A DNA stretch of 64,000 nucleotides from an uncultured Nannocystaceae bacterium (GCA_964402225.1 CAYOBQ010000017.1:10349-74348), one strand, 5' to 3'. Positions 9,487-17,582 are shown, counted from the stretch's first letter. The notes: a model not told the origin generated them from the sequence alone. A program made the numbers and translations.

Positions 9487-12400
9487 ATGCACGCCGGCCT
9501 CGACGTAGTCCGTGCGCTCGACGGACTCGAGCTTCCCGACGACTCGGCGGAGTTCATCCGCGACGCCCACGCGGCGCTGGTCGCGGGGCGCGCGCGGCAG
9601 TGCGTCGAGGGGCTCGAGCAGCTCGGGCCCGAGGCGGGTGGGGCCGCTGCCTACTTGCTGGGGCTCGCACAGCTCGCCCGCGGCGACCTCTACCGCGCCG
9701 GGACCGCCTTCGAGCACGCGACGCAGGCCGATCCCAAGCTCTTCCGTGCTCGGTTTCAGCTCGCCCGGGTCTGCGAGGCGCGCGAGGACGACCAGCGCGC
9801 CGCCGAGGTCCTGCGCGCTGCGCTCCAGCTCCAGCCCGACGAGCCCGACGCCATCGGCGCGTTGGCGCGGGTCTACACTCGGATGGGACGCCTGGAGCGC
9901 GCCGAGGCCCTGACCCGCCGCGGGCTCGAGCTCGACGCGGGATCGCCGACGCTGTTGTCGGCGCTGGCCGACGCCCTGCGCGCCCAAGGCCGCCACGCCG
10001 ACGCCGTCGCCGCGCTGCGTCGAGCGCTACCGAGGGCCGAGGAAGAACCGGAGGTCCACCTCGGCCTGGGCCGGCTGCTCCTCGAGATCGGGCAGCCGGA
10101 CGAGGCGCGGCCGATCTTCGAGGCGGTGCTGCGTCGCAACGCGGACTCCACCGAGGCGCTGGCGGGGATGGCCCGTGCCCTCGAGCGTGAGGGCCACCTC
10201 TCGGAGGCGCATGGATACGTGCTGCGGGCCATGGCGGCGGTCCCCGACCGAGCGGAGCTGCATTTGCTCCACGCCCGCATCAACCTCGCGACGGGTCGCT
10301 TCGACGCCGCCGAGACCTCCGCCGCGATGGCCGCCACGCTGGAGCCCCACAACCCGGAGGCGCTCCGACTGGCCATCCGGGCGGCCACCGCGCGCCGCCG
10401 CTTCCCCGAGGCCGCGGAGTACGCGGCGCGCCTGCTGCGACAAGCGCCGCGCGACGCACAGGCGGTCGCGGCACAGGCCCTGCACGAGGTGTTGTCGAGC
10501 CAGGCCGAGGCGGCCTGGGCCCGAATCGAGCCGCTGTTGAGCCGGCTGGACGACGCGCCGGATCTCCAGCTCGCCGCCGGCTGCGCGCTGCTCGCCGTGG
10601 GGCGCGCCGGCGAGGCGACCGACCACTTCAAGGAGGTGGTGCGCCTGCGGGACGGAGACGATCTCGCCCAGCGGCTGCTCGGCCTGGCCTACCGCTGCGA
10701 GCACGACCCGTCGACCAACGCGCGCTTCGCGGTGGCGCACTTGCTCAACACCGGCGAGGAGCCCGACGACGAGGACGACGAGAACACCGCGGTCCTCGAG
10801 GGGGAGGTGGCGATGCCCTCCCGGCTCGGCGAGTCGAGTGCCAGCGATCTGCCGCGGAACGTGACGGGCCCCATCGCGCCGCTGGTGGAGGCCGCCGTGA
10901 AGGCGCTGCTCGCCGAGGACCAACCGTCACCAGCGGCTCGCCCCTGGAGCGACGCCGAGGCCGCGCCCGTCCCTTCGGTGCCTGACGATCCGCCCAGCTT
11001 CACGCCCCGAGACGCCGAGCCGACGCGGCCCGACATGGACGTGCCGTCGTTGCCGCGCGGCGAGGCGGCGCCCGCCCCGCGGCGGCGGGCGGAGGACGTG
11101 CAGGCGCGGCTCCCCATCTTCGCCCCCGATTCGCAGCCCCCCGGGGTGAGCCTCGAGCTGCGATCGGCCCGTGGCGCCTTGGCGGACGTGAGCGAGCTGC
11201 TGCATCCGCTGCGGCGCGTGCTCGCGAGTGAGCCCGCCTTCTCCGATCTGGTCGCGCGGGTCGAGGGCATGATCGAGACCCACGACCAGCCGCTGGTGAT
11301 GGCGGTCCTCGGCCGGGCCGGGTCTGGCAAGACCACCTTCGTCAACGCCCTCATCGGGCAGCGGATCATCCCGACTGGCACGACGGTGCCCCATCGGCTC
11401 CGCTACGGGCGACGGGCGGCGGGCCGCGTGCTCTACCGCGACGGCCGCGCGGAGATGGTGCCGACCGAAGAGCTCGCCGAGCTGGTGCGTCGGGCCGAAG
11501 CCGGAGAGGTGAAGCAGGTCGAGGTCCTGATGCCCGTCGAGGAGCTCACCCGCGTGAGCATCATCGACGCGCCGGATCCCCTCGCGCCCGAGGTGGCGCC
11601 GCTGCTCAGGAACGCCGACGCGGTGGTCTGGCTGGGCGGGGTCGATCAGGGAGAGGGCGCGTGGCGCGAGGCCGCGGCGTGGCTCGACGAGAACCCGGTG
11701 GCGGCGATCGCTGTGCTCACGCGGGCCGATCTGGTGGACGCCGACAGCCTCGAGCGCGGCCGGCTGGCCACGCGATCGGTCCTGGGCGCGCGGGTTCGGG
11801 CGGTGGTGTCCGTCAGCTCACGGCGTGGGCTTGAGGGGCTGCGGAGCCGGGACATCGCGGCGCTGCGCGCGAGCGGCTTCACGCGGCTGCACCGGGCGCT
11901 TCGGAGCCACTTCTTCTCCCGGGCGGGGCTCATCCGCGGCGACGCCGTCGCCCGCCGCAGCGACCAGATCCGGGGGAGCGCCCGGGCGCGCCTGGAGGCT
12001 CGAATGGCCCGCGTCGAGGCGCGCGCGGAGGCGGTCGGTGCCTTGGCTGCGAGGGTGGCGCAGGACCGTGACCGGTTCCGTCACCACGCGGCGGCCGTCG
12101 CGCTCCCGCAGCTCGAGGGCGCCCTCGAACGATCGCTGGAGGAGTGCGCGGGGGATCTGGAAGAGATCCGACGAGAGAACCCCGGCAGCTTCGGTCGTGT
12201 CCACCTGCTCGACGCGCTCCGCGGTCGGCTGCGGAGGGGCTTCGGGGAGGCGGTCGGCGCGGTGCGCGCCGGCCTCGACGCCGAGCTCACCGGGTTGGTC
12301 GATGACTACTTTCAGGCCTTTGACTCGATCTTCCGCGCTCAGGAGGACGAGGCGCAGCGGGCGCGGATAGCCGGGCTCCAGGGCATCATCGACAGCTACC

Positions 12401-12735
12401 GCCAGCTCTTGCTCGAAGAGGTCTTCGGCCGGCACGCGGCCTACCTCGACGGCTGGGTAGACCAGGCGCCGCTTGAGACCCTCATCGAGGCGGACGGGGC
12501 CCTCGCCGAGCCCCCCGAGGGCGGGGACGAGTCCATCGATCTCGAGGGGCTGGTGGAGGAACTCCGTGGGCGGGGACTGCGCCTCGAGCACGCGCGAAAG
12601 CCCCACCTGGAGGGGCTGGGGGACGCGATCTTCGACGGACTCGCGGAGTTCCTCGAGGAGACGGCCGCCGAGCAGCGCGTCGTCCGGGTCGATCTCGAGA
12701 AGCGACTCCTGGAGCCCCTCGACCGGCTGACGTGA
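9487..12735 (+). CDS. TPR-repeat protein fused to a dynamin-like GTPase domain and helical stalk
   Basis: ~430 aa of TPR-like helical repeats, acidic/Pro linker, GRAGSGKT (11311-11334), IPTG-TT..LRYG, DAPD, TRAD, long helical C-terminus. Confidence 0.75.
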   Translation: MHAGLDVVRALDGLELPDDSAEFIRDAHAALVAGRARQCVEGLEQLGPEAGGAAAYLLGLAQLARGDLYRAGTAFEHATQADPKLFRARFQLARVCEAREDDQRAAEVLRAALQLQPDEPDAIGALARVYTRMGRLERAEALTRRGLELDAGSPTLLSALADALRAQGRHADAVAALRRALPRAEEEPEVHLGLGRLLLEIGQPDEARPIFEAVLRRNADSTEALAGMARALEREGHLSEAHGYVLRAMAAVPDRAELHLLHARINLATGRFDAAETSAAMAATLEPHNPEALRLAIRAATARRRFPEAAEYAARLLRQAPRDAQAVAAQALHEVLSSQAEAAWARIEPLLSRLDDAPDLQLAAGCALLAVGRAGEATDHFKEVVRLRDGDDLAQRLLGLAYRCEHDPSTNARFAVAHLLNTGEEPDDEDDENTAVLEGEVAMPSRLGESSASDLPRNVTGPIAPLVEAAVKALLAEDQPSPAARPWSDAEAAPVPSVPDDPPSFTPRDAEPTRPDMDVPSLPRGEAAPAPRRRAEDVQARLPIFAPDSQPPGVSLELRSARGALADVSELLHPLRRVLASEPAFSDLVARVEGMIETHDQPLVMAVLGRAGSGKTTFVNALIGQRIIPTGTTVPHRLRYGRRAAGRVLYRDGRAEMVPTEELAELVRRAEAGEVKQVEVLMPVEELTRVSIIDAPDPLAPEVAPLLRNADAVVWLGGVDQGEGAWREAAAWLDENPVAAIAVLTRADLVDADSLERGRLATRSVLGARVRAVVSVSSRRGLEGLRSRDIAALRASGFTRLHRALRSHFFSRAGLIRGDAVARRSDQIRGSARARLEARMARVEARAEAVGALAARVAQDRDRFRHHAAAVALPQLEGALERSLEECAGDLEEIRRENPGSFGRVHLLDALRGRLRRGFGEAVGAVRAGLDAELTGLVDDYFQAFDSIFRAQEDEAQRARIAGLQGIIDSYRQLLLEEVFGRHAAYLDGWVDQAPLETLIEADGALAEPPEGGDESIDLEGLVEELRGRGLRLEHARKPHLEGLGDAIFDGLAEFLEETAAEQRVVRVDLEKRLLEPLDRLT

Positions 12736-13364
12736 CCGACGGCTCCCACCACGACGTCGACGGACAGGGCGCGCTGGTAGAGGCCTGCGTCGCCGGTGAC
12801 GCCGAAGCGCGACGCCGGTTGGTCCTTCGATATCTGCGACCCGTGCGCCAGGCGGTGGGTTTCCTGCCGCAGGTGCGCGACGGGCGCGTCTCCAGCGCCG
12901 ACGCGGAGGACGCAGTCCAGATGGTCTTCATGACGATCTTCGCCCGCGACGCGCGCGTGCTGCGCACGTGGCGCGGGGAGTCCGGGCTGCGCACCTATCT
13001 ATGTCGCGTCGCGCAGCGCGTGGCGCGAAAGCACATTCGGACGGTGACCACCCGGGGCGGTCGTTTTCGGCTCGAGCTCGACGCCGGTGACGAGGTCTGG
13101 GACGAGCCGGTGGACGTCGATCGAGCCGATCCGGAACAGACGCTGCTCGACGAGACCGAGCGCGACCGGCTTCGTGCCGCAGTTCTCGATCGACTCAGTG
13201 AGAAAGGCCGCGACTTCTATCGTCTACTCTTCGTGGAGGAGGCAGACCCCGCGGACGTCGCGGAGCGGCTTGGAACCAACGTGAACAACGTCTACCAGTG
13301 GAAGAACCGAATCGTCCGAACGGCCCGCCTGGTGCTTCAGGAAGAGTCGAACGTCGAGCGGTAA
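12732..13364 (+). CDS. ECF sigma-70 family sigma factor
   Basis: GD.EARRRL, DAEDAVQMVF, LRTYLCRVA (region 2); DVAERLGTNVNNVYQWKNR (region 4 HTH). GTGA overlap. Confidence 0.9.
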   Translation: MTDGSHHDVDGQGALVEACVAGDAEARRRLVLRYLRPVRQAVGFLPQVRDGRVSSADAEDAVQMVFMTIFARDARVLRTWRGESGLRTYLCRVAQRVARKHIRTVTTRGGRFRLELDAGDEVWDEPVDVDRADPEQTLLDETERDRLRAAVLDRLSEKGRDFYRLLFVEEADPADVAERLGTNVNNVYQWKNRIVRTARLVLQEESNVER

Positions 13365-13382: not shown

Positions 13383-14426
13383 ATGGGCACTAGAAAGTTG
13401 AACGTGGAAGACGACGACCCCCTCGACTGGAAAGACGCGGCAGAAGCCGAAGCGCTCCTGCTCGCGCTGGCGGGCGGCCTCGACGAGGCAGAGGCGCCGG
13501 CGTGGATCGGGCGCATCGAGGCACGCCTCCTCGCCGGCGTCTTCTCGGGCCCGCCGCCGAGTGAGCTGCTGCGCGCCCTCGCCGACGCGGAGGAAGAGAC
13601 GCCGGGTGGGCGGTGGCTGTTTGCCAGGCGCCTCGACGCCGACGCCGACGCGGTGCCGGTCATCGACGCGGCGCGCGCCTGGGCCATCGATGGCGGACGC
13701 GCGGCCTTCGCCATCGACTTCGGGGTGATCGAGGAGCGATCGGTCTTCGGGCCGGCCCTCGAGGCGGCTGCGCGGGTCGAGCGCGACTCCGACGCCCCCG
13801 GCATCTGGGTCGATGCCGCGGTCCGCGACGCGGTGGCCGAGCCCGCCCGGGCCGAGGGCGAGGGCTACTGTCTGGTGGGGCGCGCGCCCGCGCCCAAACC
13901 GCGCGGCAAGTGGTCGGCGTTTGCGTCCGGCTTCGCGGTCGCCGCGGCGATCACGCTCGGGCTCGTCCTCCCAGACTGGCGCACGACCTCGAACCCCCTG
14001 GGGGCGCACATCTACGTCTCCGGCGAAGCGCGCACCCGCGGCGGCGAGGGGCAGTACCGGGCCAACGACGTCCTGCACGTCATGCTCGAGGGCGCCCCAG
14101 GGACGCACGGCACCATCTTCTTGCTCGACAGCGGCGACCGGCTTGGGCTGCCCTCGTTGCGGCTGGTCGACGCCCCCTTCACCGAGCACACGCCGCGCCA
14201 CCGGGACCACCTGAGCCTCGACGACGAGCCTGGCCTGGAGCGCTTTGTCGCGGTCGTCGCCCCGGCCCCTTTGGGGGCGTCGCGGGTGCGCCGCATGGTC
14301 ACGCGCGCCAATGAAGCCACGGGCCGAGAGGCTCGACTCGCGGCCCTGCGCGCGCAGCTCACAGACGCCGTGGGCGAGGGGCGCTTCGCCTTCGTCGAAG
14401 CGCAGGAGATTCAGCACATCAAATGA
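13383..14426 (+). CDS. Putative anti-sigma/membrane sensor: degenerate class III cyclase-like domain, TM, DUF4384-like extracytoplasmic domain
   Basis: Directly follows the ECF gene; FAIDFG....VFGPALEAAARVE....PGIWVDAAV; TM FAVAAAITLGLVL; YRANDVLHVML...IFLLDS...LDDEPGLERFVAVV. Confidence 0.6.
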   Translation: MGTRKLNVEDDDPLDWKDAAEAEALLLALAGGLDEAEAPAWIGRIEARLLAGVFSGPPPSELLRALADAEEETPGGRWLFARRLDADADAVPVIDAARAWAIDGGRAAFAIDFGVIEERSVFGPALEAAARVERDSDAPGIWVDAAVRDAVAEPARAEGEGYCLVGRAPAPKPRGKWSAFASGFAVAAAITLGLVLPDWRTTSNPLGAHIYVSGEARTRGGEGQYRANDVLHVMLEGAPGTHGTIFLLDSGDRLGLPSLRLVDAPFTEHTPRHRDHLSLDDEPGLERFVAVVAPAPLGASRVRRMVTRANEATGREARLAALRAQLTDAVGEGRFAFVEAQEIQHIK

Positions 14427-16852
14427 GGCCCTTCGCCGTCACCGCGATGCTCCTTCTCGGTTGTGCCGACGCCGATCCCTACAGCGAAGGGCAGGCGGCG
14501 TACGCCCGCGCGGACTACGCCGCGGCGCGGGTGGCCTACGAGCACGCGCTGGCCTCGGGGGATACCCCGCGGGCGCAGGTCGAGGCTCGGTTGGGGCTGA
14601 CGCTTCGCAAGCTCGGTGAGAACGACGCCGCGCGCCGCGTATTGGTGGCCGCCGTCGCGGGCGCCGAGGCTAGCGGAGACGCACACCTGGCGGCGGTGGC
14701 CCGGCGCTACCTCGGGCGCGTCCACGCAGACACCGGGCGCTACGACGAGGCGATGGCGGCCTACGACGCGGCGCTCCTGCATCACCGAACGCATGGTCCC
14801 GAGGGCGACGTGCTCAAGGTGCAGATCCAGCGAGCGGGGGTCGCCTGGGAGCGGTTCGACTTCGACACCGCCTCCGACGCCTACCAGGACGTCCATGGTC
14901 GGGCCGTGGTGTCGGGTCGGCGCGATCTCGAGGCTTCGGCCCTCGAGGGGATGTCGATGCTCCTCGGCTACGTCGGCGACTTCGGCGCGGCCCGCCGGTT
15001 GCTGGGGCAGGCCGCGCGTTTGCACCAGGAGCAGGGTCGCGAGAACCAGCTCCTGGCGACGACGCTCCAACGAGCGATCGTCGCCCAGGTCGGTGGTGAC
15101 GACGTGGCGGCGCTGGCGCTGGGGCGTGAGGCCCTGGAGCGGGCGCGCGCCCAGGGCGTGCCCATCTTCGAGGCGCAGGCGCTCGTCGTGTTGGCGGACG
15201 CCAGCCTCGACGCGAGCGCCCTCGAGGAGGGCCTGGGCTATGCGCGGTCCGCGCGAAAGATCGCCGCGGCCTCGGGGCTCGCGCCGCTGGTCCGATTCGC
15301 GCGCGTCGCGGAGGCGCGCGCCACGACTGCCCTCACCCGATGGGACGAGGCCGAGCCGCTGCTGGCCGCGCTGCGCCTGGACGAGCGGTCGGATACACGG
15401 GCCCTCGCCGAGAGCCTCTCGGCGCGGATGGCCGACGCGCGGGGGGACACCGCCGGGGCGCTGCGTCACCTGCGCGCCGCGGTGGCCAACTACGAGCAGC
15501 TCCGCGGCGAGCTCGGGGCCGAGCGGCTCTCCCGCTTCTTCAACTCCGAGCGAACGCGTGCATACGAGCGCCTCGTCGAGTCCGCCGCCGACACCGGCAC
15601 GGTCCACGAAGCGATGTACACGGTGGCTCGGATCAAGGCGCGCGCCTTGTCGGACACCCTGCGGGCGACCCCCGCGGAGGGGGAGCGACGCCGATGGCGA
15701 CGGGGGGCGAACCTCACGAAGGTGCTCTCGAAGATGGCGCCGGTCCCGCCCATCGAGTCGGCCTTGTCAGAGCTGCCGCGCGCGCTCACGGTGGTCGAGT
15801 ACTACGTGCTTCCCCGCCGGCTGCTGGTCTTCACGGTTCAGGGGGGCCGAGCGCGGGTGAAGTCGGTGCCCATCGGGCGCTTGGAGCTGGCGGGTCGGGT
15901 CGAGGCGCTGCTGGCGGCCATGACGAGCGGGGCGTTGAATTGGGAGGCCGAGGCGGCGTGGCTCGCCGAGCGACTTCTCGATCCCGTGGACGACGTGCTG
16001 CGGGCGGCGACGGGGCCCATCACCTTCATCCCCCACGGGGCGTTGCATCAGGTGCCGTTCGCCGCGCTCCCCTGGGCAGAGCGTCTGCTGGTGGACGCCA
16101 ACGCGACGTTCTCGGCGCCGAGCCTCGCCGCCCTCCACGCGATCCTGCGCCGGCCCAAGGTCGGCGCTCCGACCGCCGCGCTCGCGGTGGGCGATCCGAG
16201 GGCCGACCTGCCCGGCGCCCGCGCCGAGGTACAGGCGATGGCCGCTGGCGGCGCGTCGCCCCGCACGGATGTTCTCATCGGCGGGGCGGCGACGGAGTCC
16301 GCTGTGCGTCGCGGTCTGGTGGAGACGTCGCTTGCCCACTTCGCGGTTCACGGCGTCCGCACGAGCCCCGAGCGCCCCGCCCACCTCGCGCTCCTCGAGG
16401 ACAGCAAACACGACGGGCGCCTGCACGCCGACGAGATCGCGGCGCTGGACATCGATGCCGGTCTGGTCGTGCTTTCGGTGTGCGACTCGGCGCGGGGTCG
16501 GGCCAACCGGGGTGACGAGGTCATCGGCGTCGTCGACCGGGCTTTCTTGGAGGCCGGCGCACGGTCGGTTCTCGCCAGCCGCTGGCCTGTCCACGACGCC
16601 GCGAGCGTGCTCTTCATGCGGCGCTTCTACGCCGAGCTGCCCGCTCGGGGCGCGCTGGGCGCCTTCCACGCGGCCCAGCGCGCGCTCCGGAACGGCGAGA
16701 TGCAGCCCTCGGATCTGGGCCAGCCGTTGCTCGCGCAGCTCGGCGAGCCAAGGGTCGCGAGCTTCCGTGGCGTGCGGGGCGCCGCACGACCCCTCGATCT
16801 GCGCCACCCCTATTTTTGGGCGGCGTTCACCCTCCGAGGCGACTTCCGCTGA
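14423..16852 (+). CDS. Lipoprotein TPR-CHAT (caspase-like, CD clan) protease
   Basis: Lipobox LLLGC; TPR repeats; FIPHGALHQVPFAAL, HFAVHG (His), LVVLSVCDS (Cys), SRWPVHD, FMRRFY, HPYFWAAF. Confidence 0.92.
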   Translation: MRPFAVTAMLLLGCADADPYSEGQAAYARADYAAARVAYEHALASGDTPRAQVEARLGLTLRKLGENDAARRVLVAAVAGAEASGDAHLAAVARRYLGRVHADTGRYDEAMAAYDAALLHHRTHGPEGDVLKVQIQRAGVAWERFDFDTASDAYQDVHGRAVVSGRRDLEASALEGMSMLLGYVGDFGAARRLLGQAARLHQEQGRENQLLATTLQRAIVAQVGGDDVAALALGREALERARAQGVPIFEAQALVVLADASLDASALEEGLGYARSARKIAAASGLAPLVRFARVAEARATTALTRWDEAEPLLAALRLDERSDTRALAESLSARMADARGDTAGALRHLRAAVANYEQLRGELGAERLSRFFNSERTRAYERLVESAADTGTVHEAMYTVARIKARALSDTLRATPAEGERRRWRRGANLTKVLSKMAPVPPIESALSELPRALTVVEYYVLPRRLLVFTVQGGRARVKSVPIGRLELAGRVEALLAAMTSGALNWEAEAAWLAERLLDPVDDVLRAATGPITFIPHGALHQVPFAALPWAERLLVDANATFSAPSLAALHAILRRPKVGAPTAALAVGDPRADLPGARAEVQAMAAGGASPRTDVLIGGAATESAVRRGLVETSLAHFAVHGVRTSPERPAHLALLEDSKHDGRLHADEIAALDIDAGLVVLSVCDSARGRANRGDEVIGVVDRAFLEAGARSVLASRWPVHDAASVLFMRRFYAELPARGALGAFHAAQRALRNGEMQPSDLGQPLLAQLGEPRVASFRGVRGAARPLDLRHPYFWAAFTLRGDFR

Positions 16853-16925: not shown

Positions 16926-17582
16926 ATGCGTGCGTTGCTTCTCCTAGGGTTGGTGCTGTGGACCGTGGCCGGTTGCGAGAAGGGCGACGGCAACAAGATC
17001 AATGATCCCAAAAAGTGGGTGACGGCGGCGAAGTGCAAGACCGACAAGGACTGCGCGAAGGGCTTCGTCTGCAATGGTGAGGCGGGGAAGAAGACCTGCC
17101 AGAAGGGCGAGCGCACGGCGGCGGAGAAGGCGGCCATGAAGAAGGCGGAGAGCGAGGCGCGGAAGAAGAAGCAAGAGGCCGCGCGCACCCCGGACGCTGG
17201 CGAAGGGCGCCTCTACGTGCGGATCTGCCCGTTCTTCAAGAACACGCCGGAGTCCATCGGGACGATCGTCGCGGTCAACCAGGCGACGAAGAAGAAGCAC
17301 CAGCTCCACCTGGCCCTCGAGACGCCCGACCAGGGCTACCGCGACCAGTTCTTCTACCGGTCGTTGCCCCTCGGAAAATACGACGTGACGGCGACCTACG
17401 GGATCCAGAAGGGTGGCAAGCCCCACGTCGCTCAGTTGAAGTGCGATCCCAAAAGCAAGCTGGCGTGCCGAGACGAGCTGGTCCGCGAGATCAACGTCGT
17501 CCTACCCAAAGACGAGGTTCCGCTAGCGAAGGACGACAAGGGCAAGGAGAAGAAGCGCCTCTGCGACTTCATCGCGGAGTAG
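16926..17582 (+). CDS. Lys-rich, Cys-rich hypothetical lipoprotein
   Basis: Lipobox VAGC; CKTDKDCAKGFVC...C motif; good codon bias. Confidence 0.7.
   Translation: MRALLLLGLVLWTVAGCEKGDGNKINDPKKWVTAAKCKTDKDCAKGFVCNGEAGKKTCQKGERTAAEKAAMKKAESEARKKKQEAARTPDAGEGRLYVRICPFFKNTPESIGTIVAVNQATKKKHQLHLALETPDQGYRDQFFYRSLPLGKYDVTATYGIQKGGKPHVAQLKCDPKSKLACRDELVREINVVLPKDEVPLAKDDKGKEKKRLCDFIAE

Follow-up and report, generated by a model that had tools for sequence, protein, structure and literature searches.

A predicted inactive class III cyclase-homology domain in the anti-sigma position of an ECF sigma factor/TPR-CHAT protease locus

Results

Genomic setting and architecture of X

The protein considered here is encoded in a 64,000-nucleotide window, the whole stretch of DNA that was analysed, from an uncultured Nannocystaceae bacterium (GCA_964402225.1, CAYOBQ010000017.1:10349-74348; G+C ~72%). 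At positions 13383–14426, on the plus strand, an open reading frame encodes a 347-aa single-pass membrane protein in anti-sigma position, here called X, whose cytoplasmic part is predicted to have the fold of a class III nucleotide cyclase. Upstream, with 18 nt between its stop and the start of X, lies the gene for the presumed partner of X, a 210-aa extracytoplasmic function (ECF) sigma-70 family factor (12732–13364, plus strand; TIGR02937 at 62.3 bits against a cut-off of 42.9, with Sigma70_r2 and r4_2 matches). Downstream, the stop of X overlaps the ATG of a gene for an 809-aa caspase-like protease (14423–16852, plus strand) that combines tetratricopeptide repeats (TPR) with a CHAT domain (PF12770, E 3.8e-54). 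This TPR-CHAT protein is a predicted lipoprotein, with an LLGC lipobox and the lipoprotein signal MRPFAVTAMLLLGC in its translation, and it carries a His motif, FAVHG, and a Cys motif, LSVCDS, both of which are also present in the orthologue from genome G013. Judged from these motifs, the protein is probably catalytically active as a caspase-like protease in the periplasm.

The family of X is tiny, with ~30 clusters that all belong to a single uncultured family of the Myxococcales. A word-indexed search turned up 3 members among 5.8 billion proteins, and an exhaustive HMMER search of 1.84 billion representatives found 32 relatives, ~24 of them full length, at 28–58% identity. Full-length homologues are confined to the window's own taxonomic family (61 related genomes). 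The family alignment, A2, holds 26 sequences, and all family counts given below refer to these; a second alignment, A5, is restricted to the cytoplasmic domain. As to the start of X, the ATG annotated at 13383 is not preceded by a clear Shine-Dalgarno sequence. Translation from a TTG at 13398 would yield the N terminus MNVEDDDPLDW; this codon is possibly the true start, because the closest homologue begins MNVDDDEPLDW.

Residues 1–200 of the translated protein contain one Cys (C163) and no His, and X therefore has no HxxxCxxC motif of the zinc-binding anti-sigma (ZAS) type, just as the initial annotation of this gene had stated. No anti-sigma or other family in Pfam or NCBIfam matches X at E ≤ 1, and zf-HC2 and RskA give no match in X. 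The initial annotation had considered that the region might turn out to match an ordinary anti-sigma domain; Pfam and NCBIfam returned no such match, in X or in its relatives. We rejected a reading of the region as an ordinary helical anti-sigma domain, as the structural model described below consists of one N-terminal helix followed by an α/β domain.

The transmembrane (TM) helix spans residues 177–199 (13911–13979, plus strand). It coincides with the hydrophobic stretch FASGFAVAAAITLGLVL, which follows KPRGKW, and with a helix at residues 177–195 in the AlphaFold2 (AF2) model; 24 of the 26 family members retain A187 and A188. Because the N-terminal side of this helix is rich in Arg and Lys, the N terminus of X is predicted to be cytoplasmic. 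Beyond the membrane, residues 205–347 (13995–14423, plus strand) are modelled as a periplasmic β-sandwich, after which come a helical hairpin and two short strands, with predicted local distance difference test (pLDDT) values mostly >95 from about residue 230 and 74–83 before it.

The relation of this ectodomain to DUF4384 is distant. PF14326 (DUF4384, cut-off 27 bits) does not match the window's X, and when it was run against the window's own genome, X was not found and one weak, unrelated match was returned. Matches below threshold occur in 7/26 relatives (best E 1.4e-4), and short paralogues, which are considered below, score 24.6, 22, and 16.7 bits. That the ectodomain is a distant DUF4384 relative is thus weakly supported. 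Of the topology proposed in the initial annotation, a domain wired through one TM segment to a DUF4384-like domain, the single TM helix leading to a β-sandwich stands, and the label given to the sandwich has this weak support.

A cyclase-like fold on the cytoplasmic side

The AF2 prediction from the single sequence of X is uninformative (pLDDT 41.7). With A2 as input, the mean pLDDT rises to 87.7, and values exceed 90 for residues 50–160 and ~230–347. The model starts with a helix at residues 16–29 (13428–13469, plus strand; pLDDT 75–80, a moderate confidence), which is amphipathic, has the consensus AEALLxxL, and is a candidate sigma-contact or packing helix; its residue 23 (E23 in X) is acidic in 23/26 members, and L26 is kept in 24/26. 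A conserved P39-x-W41 turn leads into a compact domain of residues ~40–165 (13500–13877, plus strand), with strands at residues 47–55, 69–72, 77–83, 106–117, 120–122, 140–143, 155–158, and 161–164 and helices at 61–66, 87–101, 124–135, and 145–151. The resulting order, β-α-β-β-α-β-β-α-β-α-β-β, is that of the class III cyclase-homology domain (CHD). Compared with such domains, which measure 160–190 aa, the ~125 aa of X are short, the α1/α2 region and the β4–β5 arm both being reduced in the model.

The initial annotation had proposed that a structure search of residues ~50–150 be used to look for a cyclase fold. A Foldseek search against the PDB places class III cyclases nearly exclusively in the top 50 (probability 1.0, E 3e-4 to 3e-3), including Ma1120, Rv1625c, Rv1264, 3mr7, RhoGC, soluble guanylyl cyclase, CyaB, CyaC, and Cya2, so that a predicted structure devoid of the cyclase fold, named there as the outcome that would count against the idea, is not what the pLDDT 87.7 model gives. 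Ma1120 aligns over 152–160 columns with a root mean square deviation of 4–5 Å and a TM-score of 0.50–0.55 when normalised to the 156–163-residue target. Apart from cyclases, the top 50 contain only GlgE (TM-score 0.11–0.12 on the target, 0.18–0.20 on the query), and its matches probably come from the C-terminal sandwich. A reading as GGDEF or another palm domain was also considered, and no such family appears in the top 50.

Sequence comparison singles out the same proteins. When the A2 profile is searched against 177,635 distinct PDB sequences, the top four matches are Ma1120, in three variants (E 0.024–0.065), and 3mr7 (E 0.23); four of the top five matches are cyclases (E 0.02–0.5), and the alignment covers profile positions 38–151. 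The domain-only A5 profile returns the same cyclases at E 0.044–0.47. The segment in which the initial annotation had seen a cyclase pattern, quoted there as RAAFAIDFGVIEERSVFGPALEAAARVERDSDAPGIWVDAAVRDAV, corresponds to residues 106–151 (13698–13835, plus strand), that is, cyclase β4 through α5. We compared it with a hidden Markov model (HMM) built from 92 Ma1120-like cyclases and 7 cyclase domains from the window's own genome. Against this HMM, the cytoplasmic domain of the window's X reaches 14.0 bits, whereas the maximum in 5,200 composition-preserving shuffles, made from the 26 family domains, is 9.4 bits; the proposed likeness to the cyclase pattern is thus beyond chance by this measure, and an empirical p ≤ 0.05 against the same HMM is reached by 10/26 family members. 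The local alignment, at 13.8 bits, pairs EERSVFGPALEAAARVERDSDAPGIWVDAAVRDAVAEP with rgddlfGrnVamAARvaaqaeggeilvseavreavedl. Its register is that of the initial annotation: G123, E127, and R131 align with the Gly, Asn, and Arg of fGdxVNxAaR, respectively. Profile–profile alignment with hhalign picks this register as well and extends it over 118–133 columns. X is visibly similar to Ma1120 in the Gly/turn signature and in the α4-β6-α5 stretch, in which 12/33 residues are identical.

Several results weigh against a cyclase origin. On standard statistics the sequence similarity is marginal, and no single statistic is significant. PF00211 matches neither the window's X at E ≤ 1 nor its 26 relatives at E ≤ 10, and a PDB profile search based on three close homologues only gave no match. 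The A5 profile also produces a spurious match to the TCP-1 chaperonin at E 0.035. With hhalign, the comparison to the genome's own seven cyclase domains gives P 0.19 and a probability of 0.3–0.8%, and addition of the 92 Ma1120-like cyclases still brings P only to 0.025–0.07. Because these P values are weak, profile–profile statistics alone would not support the claim. The fold itself derives from one AF2 model made with a shallow alignment of 26 sequences, and the Foldseek output comes without residue ranges.

These observations could be taken to mean that the likeness is an artefact, a generic ferredoxin-like α/β fold or an over-interpretation by AlphaFold to which convergent or chance sequence similarity has been added. 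The hhalign probabilities of 0.3–2%, the silence of PF00211, the shallow alignment, and the useless single-sequence model are all in keeping with that explanation. We consider it improbable, as the structure search and the PDB sequence-profile search both put Ma1120 and 3mr7 on top, no ferredoxin-like family joins the cyclases in the Foldseek top 50, the window's domain lies above all the shuffles, and the near-invariant G114, G123, and G140 match conserved Gly/turn positions of the cyclase signature exactly or to within one residue. Since the structural and sequence searches converge on the same two PDB proteins, chance is hard to credit. That the cytoplasmic domain has both the fold of class III cyclases and common ancestry with them is, in our judgment, highly likely.

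Loss of the catalytic residues

The domain lacks the residues with which class III cyclases work. No Asp is conserved in strand β1, which reads RLLAGVFSG (consensus LLVAV), and at position 55 only 12/26 members have an acidic residue. In the β2–β3 hairpin, the site of the second metal-binding Asp, found in cyclases as GD, is G76-R77 (G in 18/26, R in 19/26). The absence of evident metal-binding Asp motifs, remarked on in the initial annotation, therefore holds at both sites, and so does its replacement of the Asn by Glu, which is E127 in the canonical G-D-x-V-N-x-A-x-R register. Alternative registers put A125 or L126 at the Asn position, and across the family this position is A, P, or E. The initial annotation had further held that the Arg is kept; this is true of R131 in the window's X but of only 6/26 members of the family, R106 being found in 18/26. 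The shortened β4–β5 arm is the bearer of the second specificity residue.

With both metal-binding Asp residues, the transition-state Asn, and the specificity residues lost, no synthesis of cAMP or cGMP is expected. A very divergent but active nucleotide cyclase has only the fold in its favor, and a family with neither a conserved acidic metal pair nor an Asn or a conserved Arg at the transition-state positions leaves it practically no chance; the missing catalytic residues effectively refute it. The only invariant or near-invariant positions in the domain are A81, G114, G123, and G140, with P39 just before it. Fairly conserved polar residues exist (E23, E71 in 23/26, R77, R98, R106, and D144), but none in the domain is invariant, and therefore no binding surface can be named, which counts against the anti-sigma interpretation discussed below. 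From the alignment, the conservation of the domain is what a scaffold would show, rather than an enzyme or a pocket that binds a ligand tightly. We are accordingly confident in describing the domain as one that has a cyclase fold and is dead.

A dead cyclase could still bind a nucleotide. The domain could be a ligand sensor that holds a nucleotide (ATP, GTP, or a cyclic one) without turning it over and thereby modulates release of the sigma factor from the cytoplasmic side. In line with this idea, E71 coincides with, or directly adjoins, the Lys/Glu position by which cyclases specify the base, the best PDB match is the K-to-E "guanylyl" mutant of Ma1120, and R77, R98, R106, and D144 are among the better conserved residues. 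With both metal-binding Asp residues gone, the β4–β5 arm shortened, and only Gly, Ala, and Pro at invariant or near-invariant positions, such a sensor seems rather improbable. The initial annotation had listed dimerisation, nucleotide sensing, and sigma binding as roles for a repurposed pseudo-cyclase. Nucleotide sensing is the one disfavored among them, as the domain has no invariant polar residue, and the genomic context favors sigma binding and dimerisation.

Linkage to sigma factor genes

We compared 12 loci, namely the window, two close metagenomic loci, and nine genomes with X at 28–36% identity. A sigma gene lies directly upstream of X in 12/12, and a CHAT gene follows X in each of the 11 loci not cut by a contig end. 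A further gene, at 9487–12735 on the plus strand of the window, encodes a 1082-aa TPR array fused to a dynamin-like GTPase (Pfam TPR and Dynamin_N matches; ~430 aa of TPR repeats, Dynamin_N at 27.6 bits), and its stop (12735) overlaps the start of the sigma gene. It is present upstream of the sigma gene in 7/12 loci (the window, L001, L004, and L033–L036) and was not found in the other five (L030–L032 and L037–L038), where sigma, X, and CHAT are kept. This TPR-dynamin protein is facultative, given its presence in only seven of the loci.

Paralogues made up solely of the ectodomain and a TM or signal segment follow MatE transporter genes, and one of them is in turn followed by a CHAT gene. None of the examined paralogues without the cytoplasmic domain has a sigma neighbor. 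The window's own genome contains a 168-aa paralogue of this type, with only a TM segment and the DUF4384-like ectodomain (G000:C56:14741-15166; L040, 7950–8456, minus strand), which adjoins a MatE transporter gene and a pair of genes for a PAS histidine kinase and a LuxR response regulator. The same MatE linkage is seen for P0029, P0031, and P0034, and it points to a second, sigma-independent use of the ectodomain.

One further relative, P0035, has an ectodomain in common with X (E 6e-4 against the whole library) and a helical N terminus of 77 residues. At locus L043, its gene is flanked by an ECF sigma gene on one side and a Peptidase_C14 caspase gene on the other, and thus the order of sigma factor, membrane protein, and clan-CD protease is the same as at the X locus. 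P0035 differs in its protease, a C14 caspase, and in its N terminus, which is short, helical, and as large as anti-sigma domains usually are, whereas X has the pseudo-cyclase and a TPR-CHAT protein. With the ectodomain found alongside clan-CD proteases and a cytoplasmic module present exactly where there is a sigma gene, the arrangement is one that a modular anti-sigma factor would be expected to show.

The same context can be read differently. Instead of being an anti-sigma factor, X might serve the CHAT protein as a membrane adaptor or be its substrate, with the pseudo-cyclase of X binding another partner such as the TPR-dynamin protein while the sigma factor is controlled in some other way. 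X has no recognisable anti-sigma domain, TPR arrays are protein-binding modules, and the TPR-dynamin protein, with its gene overlapping the sigma start and present at 7/12 loci, offers an alternative cytoplasmic partner, which counts against the anti-sigma assignment. This alternative is nonetheless unlikely. The five loci without TPR-dynamin retain sigma-X-CHAT, the cytoplasmic domain is found only where a sigma gene is adjacent, and P0035 occupies the classical anti-sigma slot of a sigma/caspase operon. On the strength of gene order and domain content, X is probably the anti-sigma factor of the locus.

Discussion

Our preferred reading, to which we assign a probability of about 60%, is that X is a DUF4384-type transmembrane anti-sigma factor in which the sigma-side domain has been replaced by a helix and a dead pseudo-cyclase and whose action is probably gated by the CHAT protein. 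In this scheme, the N-terminal helix and the pseudo-cyclase would hold the co-encoded ECF sigma factor at the membrane. Cyclase domains are usually dimers, and the pseudo-cyclase would probably act as a dimer as well. On the other side of the membrane, the DUF4384-like sandwich could serve as a handle or a substrate for the TPR-CHAT lipoprotein, and a signal-dependent cut of the ectodomain by this protease would start regulated intramembrane proteolysis, by which the sigma factor would be freed.

Whether the cyclase-like domain is itself the sigma-binding surface is a separate matter. If it were, it would form a new, α/β class of anti-sigma domain, a suggestion that we make only tentatively. 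In the boldest form of the proposal, the domain would work as a dimer that clamps a pair of ECF sigma factors at the membrane, with release brought about by the periplasmic cut of the ectodomain by the TPR-CHAT protein. It would then be the first cyclase-fold pseudoenzyme known to have been put to use in controlling transcription.

Comparison with the systems already described helps to place X. Like the class I zinc and non-zinc anti-sigma domains (RsrA, ChrR, RseA, and RslA), the domain of X occupies the slot right after an ECF sigma gene and is N-terminal, cytoplasmic, and followed by one TM helix. Unlike them, it has neither the HxxxCxxC motif nor a four-helix bundle, being an α/β domain. 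With the class III cyclases (PF00211; Ma1120, PDB 4wp8, 4wpa, and 5d0g; 3mr7), X shares the predicted fold and the order of elements, but it differs from them in the loss of the metal Asp, Asn, and specificity residues, in being invisible to PF00211, and in being membrane tethered in an anti-sigma position.

A first functional parallel is with DdvA/DdvS of Myxococcus xanthus. DdvA is an anti-sigma factor of ZAS-TM-TPR-CHAT architecture, for which trans-autoproteolysis followed by RseP cleavage has been proposed (PMC11506125). A myxobacterial ECF sigma factor, a single-pass membrane protein, and a periplasmic TPR-CHAT module are common to DdvA and, as far as can be inferred for X, to the present locus (PMC11506125). 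DdvA binds its sigma factor via a CHCC zinc three-helix bundle, whereas X has a pseudo-cyclase on the sigma side; in DdvA the TPR-CHAT module is fused and its active site is incomplete (PMC11506125), whereas at the X locus it is a separate downstream lipoprotein that has both the His and the Cys; and the ectodomain of X is DUF4384-like.

A second parallel comes from type III-E CRISPR systems, in which the TPR-CHAT protease Csx29 cuts Csx30, a protein whose N-terminal domain binds the ECF sigma factor RpoE and which, in one subgroup, has a C-terminal DUF4384 domain (bioRxiv 10.1101/2022.08.17.504292; PMC9825189). The theme of a non-canonical sigma-binding protein, a TPR-CHAT protease, and DUF4384 (in that one Csx30 subgroup) recalls X. 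Csx30, however, is cytoplasmic and RNA/CRISPR-gated, with an N-terminal domain unrelated to that of X, whereas no CRISPR genes are seen at the X locus and both its protease and its DUF4384-like domain are predicted to be periplasmic. By analogy, X fits a split, envelope-located version of the DdvA/Csx30 theme that has a new sigma-side domain.

To our knowledge, the ECF anti-sigma domains described so far (classes I–III) are helical, with or without zinc. If the interpretation given here is correct, an α/β pseudo-cyclase in the anti-sigma slot would widen the range of structural solutions for sigma sequestration and would add a bacterial pseudoenzyme of the cyclase fold. Our literature searches turned up neither an anti-sigma domain with the cyclase fold nor a precedent among inactive bacterial cyclase-homology domains, although such absence is not proof. 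Interest in the system is limited by the small size of the family and by the inferred nature of the functional steps. The locus does offer a clean "split" DdvA, with ectodomain and TPR-CHAT as separate proteins and the His/Cys pair of the protease intact, and the protease gating proposed for envelope ECF systems is therefore directly testable here.

Other observations at the locus

A gene 73 nt 3' of the CHAT gene (16926–17582, plus strand) encodes a 218-aa Cys- and Lys-rich predicted lipoprotein (LWTVAGC) that has no family match. Genes for this protein, at 50–78% identity, are present in L001, L004, L033, and L036. In L033 and L036 the gene is not next to CHAT, and in L033 it is on the opposite strand.

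A 1559-aa protein, P0009, matches residues 41–71 of X in 27 separate stretches at 48% identity; either it is a repeat protein rich in Ala and Leu, or the matches are an artefact of low complexity.

In L001 and L004, the two closest relatives of the window's locus, a divergent CarD/CdnL-like gene (PF02559 and PF21095) lies upstream of the TPR-dynamin gene on the minus strand (1420–1908 and 1415–1903, respectively); the window has another upstream neighbor, on the plus strand, in its place. In M. xanthus, DdvS-dependent transcription requires CarD-CarG (PMC6061681).

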